A stretch of 59,858 nt of DNA, counting the filler, from Basidiobolus ranarum (Eukaryota): NCBI GenBank assembly GCA_040143965.1. It is 5 parts of 5 records of this genome, joined end to end, with 100 filler letters (N's around TTAATTAATTAA, not from the genome) between each part and the next. Parts side by side here need not be neighbours in the genome. Positions count along the whole stretch, not along the records: positions 36,030 to 47,899 come from JASJQH010000581.1; 4 more parts are not named here. The stretch is one strand, 5' to 3'. The position numbers were made by a program, and so were the translations under genes. Numbering within the stretch: the stretch's first letter is position 1; each line of letters opens with the position of its first letter. Of the stretch, positions 11,932 through 39,079 are shown piece after piece. The notes beneath the pieces are model-generated. The model did no database searches and was not told the origin of the DNA. It saw only the letters and a list, made by a program, of their open reading frames with translations.

Positions 11932-12031
11932 NNNNNNNNNNNNNNNNNNNNNNNNNNNNNNNNNNNNNNNNNNNNTTAATTAATTAANNNNNNNNNNNNN
12001 NNNNNNNNNNNNNNNNNNNNNNNNNNNNNNN
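11932..12031. other. Artificial contig spacer N44-TTAATTAATTAA-N44
   Basis: Identical 100-nt spacer with stops in all six frames, present four times in the window. Confidence 0.98.
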
Positions 12032-23942: not shown

Positions 23943-24042
23943 NNNNNNNNNNNNNNNNNNNNNNNNNNNNNNNNNNNNNNNNNNNNTTAATTAATTAANN
24001 NNNNNNNNNNNNNNNNNNNNNNNNNNNNNNNNNNNNNNNNNN
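23943..24042. other. Artificial contig spacer
   Basis: N44-TTAATTAATTAA-N44. Confidence 0.98.
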
Positions 24043-33999: not shown

Positions 34000-35929
34000 T
34001 CAATCATACTCCTCCTCACTCAGAACGCTCTTAAAGCTGAAGGGAGTGTATTTGTATCCTGATCCCTCATAAAATTTGTTATTGAACTCAACCCAATGCA
34101 AACGTAAAGCATGTAGAAATGCGGAAAGTCCCTCCATTATCATCAGAATACTCACAGTCAATACAAACCACACCGCAAAACCTGCCCAAATAGCAACGAT
34201 ACATACTGGAAATGGCAACGAGAGTACGATCTTTAGCGTCATATCCCATAGTACGCTCGAGAGCTGAGCGTGAGCTAGCGATAATGCCCACAAGCGAAGA
34301 TAAGACGCAGTGTTTGAAATACAACTGAGACAAAATTCGATGGAATGTATCATTTGATAAATTATTATGTCGCCGAAATCCCACTCTTCTTCCTCTTCTA
34401 TTTCTTCACATATTACTTGAACTGAACCGAGTTCATTCTTTTTGTTTTTCACATCTTGGCTCTCGTTGTACGCATTATATGAGACTTCGACATGTTTAGG
34501 CTTGGCATTCTCCGAATCTTCATAACTGGTATGCTTTCTCTCTTTTTGACGGTTCCTATGTCTTAAGATGAGAGGTTTAGCCAGCAACATCCAGGGAATA
34601 CAGAGTGCAGCAACGAAAATAAGCACTAGCTGGACAGTCCCTTGGCCTGGATACAGTTGATCTTGAGGACTTACGCTTCCAGGACTCAAAAACATATATA
34701 TGAGCATGTTTAACAGACTTGGTGGACCAATCGACTGCCCACTCCAATTGATTAACCATTTGTAGATGATACAAACACAAAGATATCCAAAGATGCATTC
34801 CATAAATAGGAGCTGCGGGAGGAATTCGGCCACAATAGCATACCCCTGACGAAAGTGCACATGATTATAGACGGTTAGAATAACCCCCAAGGACATCTGT
34901 AGCACCCCTAGAATCACTGACATCTTCATTTTATACGAGTTTGTAAAGATCAAGTAGTTATCAGCTCCATGCCATGCTGAATCTAAACCAAATGGATAAA
35001 CTCCAACCGGCTTAGCTTCTACAGGTTGGCCACTAGGAAAGTCTGTAGGCCAGATCCATCCAGAGGGAAATATGGAAAGAGAATAAGAAAATATGTCATT
35101 GTATATGAGTCCTGTGAAGATGGAAAACAACCCCATTAAGAGGAGAATATACCGTCCCTTGAATGTCATGGAGAATATCTCACCACCGTTGAACTGTGCC
35201 ATTGACTTTTCACTGAGGACTAACCACAGAGCAAACGCAGTCATAAGAATACCGTGCCCCAAATCACCAAACATAACCGCAAATAGAAATGGGAAAGTAA
35301 TGACGGTGAAAATTCCAGGGTTAACTTCGCCATATCTTGCCATTCCATAAGCATCTACGATATTCTGAAAGCCCGCACTGAATTTGTTCGTACGGTGGAA
35401 TGTCGGTGGCTCTCTCTTTGTTTGTAGAGGGGTTAAGATCGGATAGATTTGGGACCCCGTGCTTTCAGCAGCTTCGCGAAGCGAGAGTTGAGCCAGGGGA
35501 ATGTCATTTGAAGGACACCATCCTTCAGCAATAAGACATCTACGAGTGGGGTCGTAATTGAATAAGTTCATGGTATGATAGATAGCTTTCTCTTTGGTGA
35601 TCATTATCATCCAACCTGACAGTTTTCTAGCGATTTTCTCCAATTCTGCACGCCTTATTTGCTTTGTCTTTTCCAGGATCTGGCTGAGGTCTGATAGCCT
35701 TGAGTCAATATCTAAAATACGCATACGCCTCTGTGTGGGGTTGGTATTGATCGGGTAGAGAGATGCACCCATTGCTTCGGTAATTTTCCTGATTTTGGAA
35801 AGTATCTCTTGACCATGTGCGAAGATCACGAATGAAGATTTGTGTAACCGATTACCACTTTGCCAATCAGTTAATCCTTCTGAGATCTCGTTTTGGTGCA
35901 TATACAAATTACCACGCAATGTTCTCCAA
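34000..35929 (-). CDS. VPH1: V-type H+-ATPase V0 subunit a (5'-truncated at contig end)
   Basis: PPTFHRTNKFS.GFQNIVDAYG, FPFLFAVMFGDLGHG, NSYKMKMS, SNTASYLRLWALSLAH (essential Arg present), LRLHWVEFNNKFY. Confidence 0.96.
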
Positions 35930-36029
35930 NNNNNNNNNNNNNNNNNNNNNNNNNNNNNNNNNNNNNNNNNNNNTTAATTAATTAANNNNNNNNNNNNNNN
36001 NNNNNNNNNNNNNNNNNNNNNNNNNNNNN
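35930..36029. other. Artificial contig spacer
   Basis: N44-TTAATTAATTAA-N44. Confidence 0.98.
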
Positions 36030-36500
36030 GAGAAGCATATAGCTTCAGTTGAGAAACGTCACAATGGACAACAACATGTTGCTTCAGTTGAGAAGCGTCA
36101 CAATGGTGAAAAGCATGTTGCCTCGGTCGAGAAACGTCACAATGGCGAAAAACAGGTTGCTTCAGTCGAGAAACGTCACATTGGTCAAAATCATGTTGCA
36201 CCGGTTGCGAACCGTCACAATGGCCAAACACATTTTGCTCCAGTCGAGAAACGTCACAATGGCCAACAACATGTCGCTTCAGTCGAGAAACGTCACAATG
36301 GTGAAAAACATGTTGCCTCGGTTGAGAAGCGTCACAATGGCGAAAAACATGTTGCATCGGTTGAGAAGCGTCACAACGGACAACAACATGTGGCCTCAGT
36401 CGAGAAACGTCACAATGGTGAAAAACATGTTGCCTCAGTCGAGAAACGTCACAATGGCCAACAACATGTTGCTTCAGTAGAAAAGCGTCATAACGGACAA
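36030..36500 (+). repeat. 39-bp coding tandem repeat, about 12 copies
   Basis: CAC/CAT-AAY-GGN unit starts at 36060, 36099, 36138 ... 36489, an exact period of 39. Confidence 0.95.
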
Positions 36501-36518
36501 CATATTAATACTATCTAA
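36030..36518 (+). CDS. Kex2-processed repeat protein (KEP)-like precursor, 5'-truncated; tandem 13-aa units HNG(E/Q)(K/Q)HVASVE-KR
   Basis: The frame starting at 36030 reads EKHIASVEKR-[HNGQQHVASVEKR, HNGEKHVASVEKR...]x11-HNGQHINTI*. Differences between units fall mostly at synonymous third positions in this frame. Confidence 0.85.
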   Translation, partial: EKHIASVEKRHNGQQHVASVEKRHNGEKHVASVEKRHNGEKQVASVEKRHIGQNHVAPVANRHNGQTHFAPVEKRHNGQQHVASVEKRHNGEKHVASVEKRHNGEKHVASVEKRHNGQQHVASVEKRHNGEKHVASVEKRHNGQQHVASVEKRHNGQHINTI

Positions 36519-36956
36519 TATGATATGATCAGAAATGAGATTAATGATATTTAGATGTATCAGTATACTTGATATATCACCAATAGTAAATATATCCATT
36601 CCTCCTAAACCAATTTAGTTTGTATACTTTAAGATAACCTGGTGATAGATGTTGGTGAATAGTTCCTTAATAAATCTTTTAGATTTTTACATTATTCACA
36701 TAGTATCTTCCGTTACTTTAATCTTCTTTATACTATTCGTTAATGAAGTATAGACTAAATTCAACTTTGAATATAGGATCGTTTACATACTTTAAAGTGA
36801 GTACATTATTGTAGTATTTTGAAATTTGATAAATATTCAGAATGGTAACAATAAATTTGTTAAATAGTACTTTCTTCACAGTAAAATCCCTTTCTAAAAA
36901 AGAACTCGGAATAATAGTGAACATTTTTATTATGTTAAAAGAGATTCTTTACTTGC

Positions 36957-37355
36957 TTAAAGTACTTTCTTACTAACAAACTGACCTCCAGTATTTCCTT
37001 GTCGTACGAAAGTAGTATCATTTTTAGCTAACCAATTTTCAAGTAACTCAAGGTTATAAATGTTCGCTTTGTACATGACATCTAAAATATCTCCAATGAA
37101 GGGAACCAAACCAATGACCGCATCTATAACGACATTAAGTAACATCATGCCAAGTAAGGTAATGGGAATACCAAGTAGGGAAGATAAATAGATTTGATAT
37201 AGCGAGATGAGTAAACCAGCAATATCACCAATACCTGGAATTAACCCTATGATGGGATCTAACCCAATTCCAAACGGTAATCCGGGAATGGCATCCATGT
37301 ATGAGGCAAATCTACGGATGTTATTCAATACACGTTGCTTGGCGTAAGAGTCCAT
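36957..37355 (-). CDS. DUF4112 family membrane protein
   Basis: MDAIPGLPFGIGLDPIIGLIPGIGD...NVVIDAVIGLVPFIGDILDVMYKANIYNLELLE matches the DUF4112 pattern. Confidence 0.9.
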   Translation of the reverse strand: MDSYAKQRVLNNIRRFASYMDAIPGLPFGIGLDPIIGLIPGIGDIAGLLISLYQIYLSSLLGIPITLLGMMLLNVVIDAVIGLVPFIGDILDVMYKANIYNLELLENWLAKNDTTFVRQGNTGGQFVSKKVL

Positions 37356-37680
37356 CTTGGATAATTAAACTTGAGGATGAATATAAATGGTTTCTAGGAA
37401 TGGAAGTTGGATATTGTACTCGTAAACACTCGGGGAAAAGAGCACACCTTTTATCTACCTACATACTAGGTTAAGTCTACCTTTTAAAGAAGGAAAATAA
37501 GTGTCGTCACCAGGGAGTGATTAATGATTTTTTCACCTAATGTACCTGCAGCCCCTTTTACTTCGTCATCTTCATGCCCACCGTCATCGATGTTTAGCTT
37601 AGCTGCGACGAGAATGGAAATATCAAGTTTCGATTTAGACCAACCAACATTGTGTAATATCATGGGAATTTCAATCAAGT

Positions 37681-38442
37681 TTATTGTGTAGATCTTTTGT
37701 ATTCCAGTTGTAATACACCCAATGGGACGTCATCATCTTCACATGGAGAAGGAACAAATGATGGCAAACTCAAAAGGGTCGATCTCCATGGTGGTTCAAG
37801 ATTAAGGCCTTTAGTGATCATCAAGGATTGTGCTTTGTGAATTATTTGATGAATAAGTAGAATTGAATGAAGTCGACGATGTTCACCATCTCTTAATTTC
37901 TCTAATCCATTAAAATATGCAATTTTGATTAAACTGATGGTTTGTAATTCTGTTACTAAGTGAGAATTGATGTCTCGATAAAACGCTGGCTTAGATGCTA
38001 CCCAAGCTTTAGCGCTACCCCTGCCCCTACCCCTATCCCTGTCCCTATCTGGAGCTCGACCCCTAATCCTGATCTCTTCTTGGTGAATAGTGTCAATATT
38101 TATGGCACTCTCTAAATTAGTAAGATTTCTCCTATCCTTTTCATTTCTTGATTTGGAGTTGGATGCTGAACGAGAAGCGGCACGTTTACTAAATAATCGC
38201 CAACTTCCCCGCTTTGACCTTAACAAACGACCCCAAGAGTGGAATAATATAGAAGTCAGCTTTCTAAAGTTCAACCTTGAATTGGTAACAGAAGAATTGG
38301 TCTCGGTAGTGAATTGGATAGAGATATTGGAAGTGGTTTCCTTTTCAGAAGCATGAAACTTTTGCCTTAAATGGGTCGAATTTTCAGATTTATCAAAGTT
38401 GAAGTTGTATCTTAATTCATTTGACTCGTCCGACATTGACAT
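37681..38442 (-). CDS. Hypothetical protein (253 aa)
   Basis: Long ATG-initiated ORF with an RD/RG low-complexity tract and a C-terminal DDDVPLG motif often seen in fungal disordered proteins. Confidence 0.65.
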   Translation of the reverse strand: MSMSDESNELRYNFNFDKSENSTHLRQKFHASEKETTSNISIQFTTETNSSVTNSRLNFRKLTSILFHSWGRLLRSKRGSWRLFSKRAASRSASNSKSRNEKDRRNLTNLESAINIDTIHQEEIRIRGRAPDRDRDRGRGRGSAKAWVASKPAFYRDINSHLVTELQTISLIKIAYFNGLEKLRDGEHRRLHSILLIHQIIHKAQSLMITKGLNLEPPWRSTLLSLPSFVPSPCEDDDVPLGVLQLEYKRSTQ

Positions 38443-38958
38443 GATACGATGCTATGTGTATGTGAGTGTGAATGTGAATGGGATGAAAATGGCTTTACCA
38501 GATTATTAGATTACTAGGTTACTTTATACAGGTACTGCTCAATGAAGAACAATCAGAGGAAGTCAGGGAAAGTGGGATGTTCAATTACTGATATAGTTTA
38601 CTGCAGACAGGACTTGTGACTCCATCTTATATACACCAATATGAAATAAGAAAATCACAACGTTAATTCGTATTAAAGATGAAACAAGAACCTGTTGATA
38701 CTTCAGTGTGTGGCTGGGGTCCTTCTCGACTAGGCAAAATGACCAGATAGTGTTTGGGCTAAACACCACCAATTCTATATATAGTCCATCGATTAATCAT
38801 GTATTTTACCACAAGTACTAATTCATCTTCTTTTTAGTAGTCGATGTGATCAATTAGTGAGTGATAAGAAGCCAGTTTCAATCAAGTTTCCGAAACAAGT
38901 GGATATTGTATTCTTTCATACTTCGGATAAATTCACACCAACAATTCACTAGTAATAT

Positions 38959-38966
38959 TGAGTCAT
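38959..38966. promoter_or_regulatory. Gcn4/CpcA-type element (TGAGTCAT, reverse complement ATGACTCA) upstream of trpB
   Basis: Perfect TGASTCA core about 115 nt upstream of the trpB ATG. TATAAAA at 39012-39018. Confidence 0.45.
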
Positions 38967-39079
38967 ACAAGGCGTTGGGAATATTAGGATGTATTGAATC
39001 AGGGAAACCTTTATAAAATAAATGGACTTCGGTTTGAAAAGGAAAAAGGAAACGGCTTTTTTCTTATCTTTTTACTACT

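Follow-up and report, generated by a model that had tools for sequence, protein, structure and literature searches.

Introduction

Kex2-processed repeat proteins (KEPs) are secretory polyprotein precursors that occur in nearly all fungi, and two surveys have catalogued them on a large scale: one counts 1193 KEPs in 226 species (PMC6339444), the other 7878 in 1345 strains, including 2560 stand-alone KEPs without homologues (PMC7329392). Le Marquer et al. 2019 recognize a KEP by a signal peptide, the lack of a transmembrane segment, three or more mutually similar fragments bounded by Lys-Arg (KR), RR or KK pairs, and repeats covering no less than 15% of its length (PMC6339444); Umemura 2020 asks for a signal peptide and at least three repeats of 8–100 amino acids between Kex2 sites (PMC7329392). 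Mass spectrometry, for which a KEP peptidomics protocol is available, has revealed linear peptides from KEPs, and KEP knock-outs in Coprinopsis gave no phenotype (PMC9769878). KEPs are abundant in fungal genomes, yet nearly no KEP peptide has a known function. Here we describe a tandem array at positions 36030–36518 (+ strand) of a 59,858-nucleotide stretch of joined DNA from Basidiobolus ranarum (assembly GCA_040143965.1; the whole stretch is called the window), and argue, with some reserve, that this array is probably the 3′ part of a KEP gene.

Results

A tandem array encoding near-identical peptides

Tandem Repeats Finder resolved a 39-nt period between 36042 and 36490 (11.5 copies, 82% matches, 0 indels, score 555), together with a higher-order period of 117 nt, equal to three units (3.9 copies, 85% matches, score 614). 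Read on the + strand, the array at 36030–36518 opens with a partial unit, continues through 11 complete units of 39 nt and closes with a divergent unit that carries the stop codon (Table 1), and the units translate into 13 residues of the general pattern HNG(E/Q)(K/Q)HVASVEKR. Translation and period together therefore bear out an earlier note on this DNA, which had read tandem units of this kind in the frame from 36030. The complete units comprise four copies of HNGQQHVASVEKR, four copies of HNGEKHVASVEKR, and one copy each of HNGEKQVASVEKR, HIGQNHVAPVANR and HNGQTHFAPVEKR. Eight units are canonical, four reading HNGQQHVASVE-KR and four HNGEKHVASVE-KR; the two isoforms, which differ by EK versus QQ at positions 4–5, are thus each kept in four copies, as in multi-isoform peptide precursors. 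In the first of the two degenerate units (HIGQNHVAPVANR) the KR site is replaced by NR, and cutting there would consequently give a 24-mer.

His1 is invariant (11/11 units) and His6 is present in 10/11, while the two residues that follow KR are His-Asn in 10 of the 11 units and His-Ile in the remaining one. The units contain no Trp, the cores contain no Tyr or Cys, Pro is limited to the two degenerate units, and the sole aromatic residue in the cores is one Phe, in a degenerate unit. The visible protein of 162 amino acids is rich in His, Val, Glu and Lys, has a grand average of hydropathicity (GRAVY) of −1.41 with no hydrophobic segment, and stops a few residues past its last unit. Apart from 36030–36518, a rough search of the entire window in six frames turned up no KR/RR/KK-delimited repeat open reading frame (ORF).

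Codon usage at the putative cleavage junction is fixed, with Arg13 written as CGT and His1 as CAC in 11/11 units, and His6 as CAT in 10/11; the codons for Lys, Gly, Val, Ala and Ser near the junction, unlike those for Arg13 and His1, vary freely. This pattern hints at a constraint on the nucleotides themselves, or at a recombination register where two units join.

Selection acts on the peptide of each unit

Pairwise differences among all 11 units number 86, 30 and 240 at codon positions 1, 2 and 3, respectively. Among the eight canonical units, third positions account for nine of the 11 variable columns (binomial P = 0.0014 for one given position); all nine are silent, and the sole replacements are the coupled E/Q and K/Q alternations at positions 4–5. 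Nei-Gojobori counting gave a synonymous proportion of differences (pS) of 0.531 and a nonsynonymous proportion (pN) of 0.037 for the canonical units (pN/pS 0.07), and pS 0.453 and pN 0.087 for all 11 units (pN/pS 0.19). The 28 canonical unit pairs behind the first ratio are partly non-independent, because blocks of units have been duplicated (the 117-nt period); this leaves the direction of the result in no doubt. Four alternative open or partly open frames gave pN/pS values of 1.4–11.9, and the only reverse frame to score low (0.24) is interrupted by a stop codon in each unit. The earlier observation that changes are mainly synonymous and mark the selected frame is thereby confirmed, at a pN/pS of 0.07 over the eight canonical units against values above 1, or stop codons, elsewhere.

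The array is coding sequence, in which selection maintains each unit's peptide and silent sites are left to drift. Strong silent divergence combined with identical peptides is what would be expected when every released copy must act. A non-coding satellite was also considered, and is ruled out by the codon-position pattern of the differences.

Stop-to-stop ORFs show the array partly open in two other + frames and in one − frame as well, and list the peptide frame as 35982..36518, open from the linker onward. The peptide frame had been called hidden, which is true of a start-based view, where it is missed because no start codon remains, but not of the stop-to-stop listing, where it is plainly present.

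The contig edge removes the 5′ part of the gene

The window consists of five contigs of ~11.9 kb, with one and the same 100-nt linker (44 N + TTAATTAATTAA + 44 N) placed between each and the next. The linker at 35930..36029 precedes contig 4 (36030–47899, from JASJQH010000581.1), and all sequence upstream of it comes from another contig. Base 36030 is simply the first base of the contig, and treating it as the biological start of the frame, as had been done before, is not borne out. The contig opens within the array and so lacks the gene's 5′ part, together with whatever start codon and signal peptide this may hold; the assembler probably failed to bridge the repeats. When metagenome contigs were searched for the 5′ end, none of 140 pattern matches (KRH[IN][GL][QS]N[HA][VP] and [AS]PV[AQ][NK]RHN[GP]) was confirmed by tblastn. 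A degenerate DNA pattern of two KRHNG motifs 39 nt apart matched a single metagenome locus, with no ORF of at least 50 amino acids over the site, and this match is taken as chance.

The visible protein has the architecture of a KEP

Cutting in silico at KR and RR yields 12 fragments, nine of which are 11-mers belonging to one similarity group (at least 60% identity). Lys-Arg stands in a V-E-K-R context at 10 of 12 unit boundaries, and the repeats fill ~100% of the 162 amino acids in view, a proportion that refers to the visible part only. An aliphatic P4 residue, as found here, suits Kex2 sites; a literature search on Kex2 P4 specificity gave nothing usable. With its 12 fragments and 11 complete units, the array lies within the repeat definitions of both surveys (PMC6339444, PMC7329392), which upholds the Lys-Arg-delimited tandem architecture of KEP type claimed in the earlier note. 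The visible part agrees with the KEP definitions at every point that can be checked on it, and membership of the class formally awaits the signal peptide. A Pfam scan of the window ORFs, limited to the window, found no kexin gene.

Our preferred reading, to which we give a fair though not a strong balance of probability, is that 36030–36518 is the 3′ part of a gene for a KEP, a secretory polyprotein precursor; its secretion, cleavage, trimming and function are what we infer from there. A signal peptide on the missing 5′ part would bring the precursor into the endoplasmic reticulum, a kexin (Kex2-type) protease of the late Golgi would cut after each Val-Glu-Lys-Arg, and a Kex1-type carboxypeptidase would remove Lys-Arg, leading to the secretion of linear 11-mers, HNGEKHVASVE and HNGQQHVASVE, of ~1.2 kDa each, with computed average masses of 1206.3 and 1205.2 Da, and in at least four copies each. 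To these would be added, as minor products, EKHIASVE from the partial unit, HNGEKQVASVE, the 24-mer from the degenerate units and the C-terminal HNGQHINTI. Each cut would expose a free N-terminal histidine.

The 11-mers are computed to be hydrophilic (GRAVY ~−1.0) and slightly acidic, with a net charge of ~−1 at pH 7, and are for these reasons unlike cationic antimicrobial or membrane-lytic peptides. By analogy with what has been proposed for other linear KEP peptides, the most likely role would be extracellular signalling or biotic interaction, with metal chelation a minority possibility.

Homologue searches return two look-alikes

A word-indexed search of 5.8 billion proteins returned one match of near length, P0001 (E 1.1e-4), and no homologue among longer proteins; a profile search of 5.8 billion proteins returned P0001 together with P0061. 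Using phmmer against 1.84 billion representatives, we obtained 60 matches at E ≤ 0.001, and inspected 28 of these in addition to P0001. Twenty-six of the 28 have no basic-pair-delimited peptide array built like the repeat protein, and many of those inspected resemble, by eye, translated satellites; the other two, P0021 and P0045, do have basic-pair-delimited units, but of unrelated peptides. Unrelated 13-residue repeats reach E 4e-22, and E-values are therefore unreliable for a periodic query such as this one.

Pfam gave only sub-threshold noise on the repeat (PCF11_RFEG_rpt at 20.7 bits, cut-off 43; DUF6150 at 17.6, cut-off 27) and no family on P0001 or P0061, and Protein Atlas returned no usable answer on the repeat protein or on P0061. 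The peptide strings were not found in the literature searched, and the peptide sequence, with its HNG start and second His, has no match in the texts and supplements of the KEP surveys; as these supplements list species and accessions rather than KEP sequences, this carries little weight. The peptide family, which the earlier note had not recognized, indeed yielded no close homologue in the searches of the 5.8 and the 1.84 billion proteins.

P0001 (202 amino acids) and P0061 (262 amino acids) are unnamed JGI ‘hypothetical proteins’ that are related to each other. Both have hydrophobic, signal-peptide-like N-termini (MK followed by ~15 residues, GRAVY 1.95 and 1.97, judged by hydrophobicity and not by SignalP), and both carry KR/RR-delimited peptides of 6–17 residues, all but one of which start with His-Asn. 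The start with His-Asn is shared with the repeat protein, as are a mostly aliphatic residue plus Glu/Gln before the dibasic site, a modal unit of 13 residues and the junction motif (V/I)-E-K-R-H-N; the positions common to the window units and both proteins are H1, N2, V10, E11, K12 and R13. P0001 and P0061 differ in their Pro/Ser-rich cores (HNPSNVPSPVE-like), mostly without a second His, in their unit lengths of 8 to 13 residues, and in a conserved C-terminal tail of ~50 residues (QVPASPKPS...WE.AI...) that is absent from the window protein; P0061 further has an N-terminal domain of ~100 residues, unseen in the window protein. These two proteins are the sole plausible relatives found, and by their sequences may represent distant kinship or convergence; convergence may explain the likeness, since most of it falls on the protease site. 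In their own right, P0001 and P0061 look like an undescribed KEP type with HNPS-starting peptides.

Alternative readings of the array

Several observations weigh against a KEP: the defining signal peptide is not visible, the contig starting inside the array; AlphaFold2 offers a beta-hairpin model; and the likeness to P0001 and P0061 amounts to 6 of the 13 unit positions, four of them the protease site, so that with so few shared positions, unreliable E-values and no C-terminal tail here, homology to these proteins is not established. The rival served by the first two is an unprocessed structural repeat protein, intracellular or wall-associated, consisting either of beta-hairpin repeats with Asn-Gly turns or of a hydrophilic disordered protein resembling late embryogenesis abundant (LEA) proteins or hydrophilins, with the Lys-Arg pairs as ordinary charged residues and not as cleavage sites. 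Run on the single sequence, AlphaFold2 builds a meander made entirely of beta strands, one for each unit, that turns at Asn-Gly; confidence in it is moderate (predicted local distance difference test, pLDDT, 74.3; predicted template modelling score, pTM, 0.59). An out-of-frame translation of the same DNA, run as a control, scored lower (pLDDT 57.1, pTM 0.24), which means that periodicity alone does not account for the score, and that the conserved residues could serve a fold instead of released peptides; purifying selection over all 13 positions cannot by itself tell the two apart. The very hydrophilic, His-, Val-, Glu- and Lys-rich composition and the lack of a visible signal peptide in the cut gene would suit such a protein too. 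We nevertheless consider it rather unlikely. Foldseek found no match for the model in the PDB at E ≤ 0.001 (best E 0.037, TM-scores 0.17–0.25), modelling perfect repeats from a single sequence easily produces artefacts, and near-perfect unit identity at a pS of 0.53 is stricter than is usual in structural or LEA-type repeats. The dibasic site, moreover, recurs at the same place unit after unit with an aliphatic P4 residue before it, as befits a kexin substrate, and the only look-alikes, P0001 and P0061, have signal-peptide-like N-termini. Folding of the precursor would, besides, not preclude its being cleaved later.

Two further rivals keep the Kex2 cleavage and assign the products elsewhere. 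In ustiloxin/dikaritin-type RiPP precursors (RiPPs being peptides made by the ribosome and modified after translation), whose architecture the array matches, KR-delimited cores undergo cyclization or another modification around Kex2 cleavage, carried out by enzymes of the same cluster (DUF3328/UstYa, tyrosinase, methyltransferase). What lies upstream of the present gene is beyond the contig edge, and in one survey 22% of KEP genes have a DUF3328 gene nearby, on average 3.09 genes away (PMC7329392). However, a Pfam scan of 30 stop-to-stop ORFs of at least 70 amino acids in the 11.4 kb downstream (36519–47899) recovered only DUF4112, PALP, RasGEF and M9 peptidase families, and no DUF3328, tyrosinase, methyltransferase or P450 gene. 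Dikaritin cross-links use aromatic side chains, whereas the canonical cores are without an aromatic residue and no core has Tyr, Trp or Cys, and we rate this origin as very unlikely. An alpha-factor-type mating pheromone precursor is highly improbable: alpha-pheromone cores are typically Trp/Pro-rich, and the canonical peptides have neither residue; the X-Ala/X-Pro dipeptides of Ste13 processing are absent after KR, where His-Asn stands instead; and Pfam shows no likeness to a named pheromone family. What the array has in common with such precursors is its KR-delimited tandem copies and a peptide length of 11 amino acids, within the 9–24 amino acid class of known ascomycete alpha-pheromones (PMC6339444).

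Metal binding as a possible function of the predicted peptides

Nested within the KEP reading is the idea that the released 11-mers are secreted Zn-, Cu- or Ni-scavenging or buffering peptides, with the N-terminal His (amine and imidazole) and His6 as ligands; this we regard as unlikely, and metal capture as the primary function is about as doubtful. In its fullest form, which we hold to be quite unlikely, Kex2 cleavage would unmask an N-terminal His on each copy and so create a secreted, unmodified ribosomal metallophore for Cu(II), Zn(II) or Ni(II) (through His1, the alpha-amine and His6), defining together with P0001 and P0061 an ‘N-terminal-His’ KEP family for extracellular metal capture or buffering.

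Cleavage would indeed expose an N-terminal His in every peptide, given His1 in 11/11 units, with His6 following in 10/11, and an N-terminal His is also kept in the P0001 and P0061 peptides. The copper histidine brace draws its ligands from the amine and imidazole of an N-terminal His plus a second His (PMC10952591). Here such a set would come into being only once Kex2 has cut. In Candida albicans Zrt1, His156 and His161 of an H-A-G-V-E-H stretch both ligate Zn, in a site formed by the imidazoles of His156, His161 and His168 and the thiolate of Cys162 within ~15 residues (PMC9780748). The earlier note had likened H-x-G-x-x-H to CHFHAGVEHC of Aspergillus ZrfC; the spacing matches literally, but the source gives this stretch for C. 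albicans Zrt1 and not for ZrfC (PMC9780748). Cys162 and His168, which the Zrt1 site also needs (PMC9780748), have no counterpart in the 11-mers, which have two His and no Cys and share with a Zrt1/ZrfC-type site the H-x-G-x-x-H spacing alone.

Two His residues in an 11-mer are weak evidence, and all 13 positions of the unit are equally conserved, not His alone. The P0001 and P0061 peptides mostly have no second His; if these proteins are kin to the repeat protein, conservation does not fall on the H-x4-H pair. Among the Pfam-scanned ORFs of the 11.4 kb downstream there is neither a metal transporter nor a metal-regulated gene. Reportedly, Cu(II) complexes have been studied for a family of insect peptides that start with His, which the 11-mers resemble.

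Neighbouring genes and content of the window

The features of the contig and its surroundings are collected in Table 1. None of the downstream genes up to 47899 has a known link to peptide maturation. The stand-alone TrpB-like gene is unlike the usual fungal form, a TrpA-TrpB fusion. The ORF at 37681–38451 contains a run of Arg-Asp/Arg-Gly dipeptides (RDRDRDRGRGRG), which stems from a short CTACCC-type tandem repeat at 38015–38049. The ORF at 44365–46710 matches Peptidase_M9 (4.8e-46) and Peptidase_M9_N (1.5e-13) in Pfam, and in the PDB it matches Clostridium-type ColH best (E 4.5e-61, residues 126–777). Because this intron-free, bacterial-type M9 collagenase gene sits among intron-containing eukaryotic genes, it may have been acquired horizontally.

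Table 1 Features of the repeat locus, its contig and the joined window.
Feature	Position	Strand	Basis
Artificial linkers	11932–12031, 23943–24042, 35930–36029, 47900–47999	.	N runs, e.g. 35930–35973 and 35986–36029
Partial unit EKHIASVEKR, C-terminal 10 residues, cut by contig edge	36030..36059	+	Translation
Eleven complete 39-nt units, each an 11-mer plus Lys-Arg site	36060..36488	+	Period, translation
Two degenerate central units, HIGQNHVAPVANR and HNGQTHFAPVEKR	36177..36254	+	Translation
Divergent terminal unit HNGQHINTI, then TAA stop; protein C-terminus	36489..36518	+	Sequence, translation
AT-rich 3′ flank, between repeat gene and convergent DUF4112 gene	36519..36956	.	Sequence
DUF4112 gene, convergent with repeat gene	36957–37364	−	Pfam
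256-amino acid ORF without Pfam family	37681–38451	−	Pfam
TrpB-like pyridoxal phosphate enzyme (PALP), stand-alone, at least 3 short GT..AG introns (~50–80 nt)	39269–40478	+	Pfam
RasGEF gene	40988–43190	−	Pfam
M9 collagenase-like gene, intron-free 781-amino acid ORF	44365–46710	+	Pfam

Genes across the window are fungus-like, with short GT..AG introns, and include ArgJ, a Pho80-type cyclin, Atg2, RasGEF, 3-HAO and a DPBB/expansin-like protein. The V-ATPase a-subunit gene at 34000–35929 (−) has its best match in yeast Vph1, and for its product fragment Protein Atlas returned only generic eukaryotic clusters; with a linker between them, it is not a true neighbour of the repeat gene. ORFs that touch the linkers are truncated, namely this V-ATPase a-subunit gene, an Atg2-like ORF from 12032 and an ArgJ fragment from 48002. 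Two long ORFs, at 55055–56107 (+, 351 amino acids) and 56436–58781 (+, 782 amino acids), have no Pfam family at E ≤ 0.001.

Discussion

As it stands, this locus is a routine gain in annotation: a gene missed for want of a start codon at a contig edge. What sets it apart is the very strong purifying selection on every copy, the presence of two isoforms in equal numbers, and the invariant His at the start of every peptide that would be released, a trait common to P0001 and P0061. If the peptides did bind metals, they would constitute a new functional class of KEPs.

The resemblance to known metal-binding proteins is confined to a short spacing. In the stretch from C. albicans Zrt1, a transporter whose Aspergillus counterpart is ZrfC, the two His are spaced alike and Gly likewise stands at +2; Zrt1 has a third His and a Cys besides, and there is no sequence homology. 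The zincophores Pra1 and Aspf2 are of another build, being folded proteins of ~300 amino acids with multi-His C-termini (PMC9780748), and not Kex2-released 11-mers. The ustiloxin-type (dikaritin) precursors likewise consist of Kex2-delimited repeated cores and also have a signal peptide (PMC7329392); the present gene differs from them in that no DUF3328 gene was found over the 11.4 kb downstream and its canonical cores contain no aromatic residue.

The comparison with KEPs themselves goes furthest. The signal peptide is out of view here, the gene being cut by the contig edge, and in this the locus departs from described members. It otherwise has, as they do, near-identical tandem peptides of 11 amino acids, clustered and separated by Lys-Arg, in numbers above the minimum of three repeats (here at least 11), which fill the visible protein up to a short divergent C-terminal unit. 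Its lack of homologues is shared with the 2560 stand-alone KEPs among the 7878 counted in the larger survey (PMC7329392). The locus is most likely an orphan KEP within this large, already described class.

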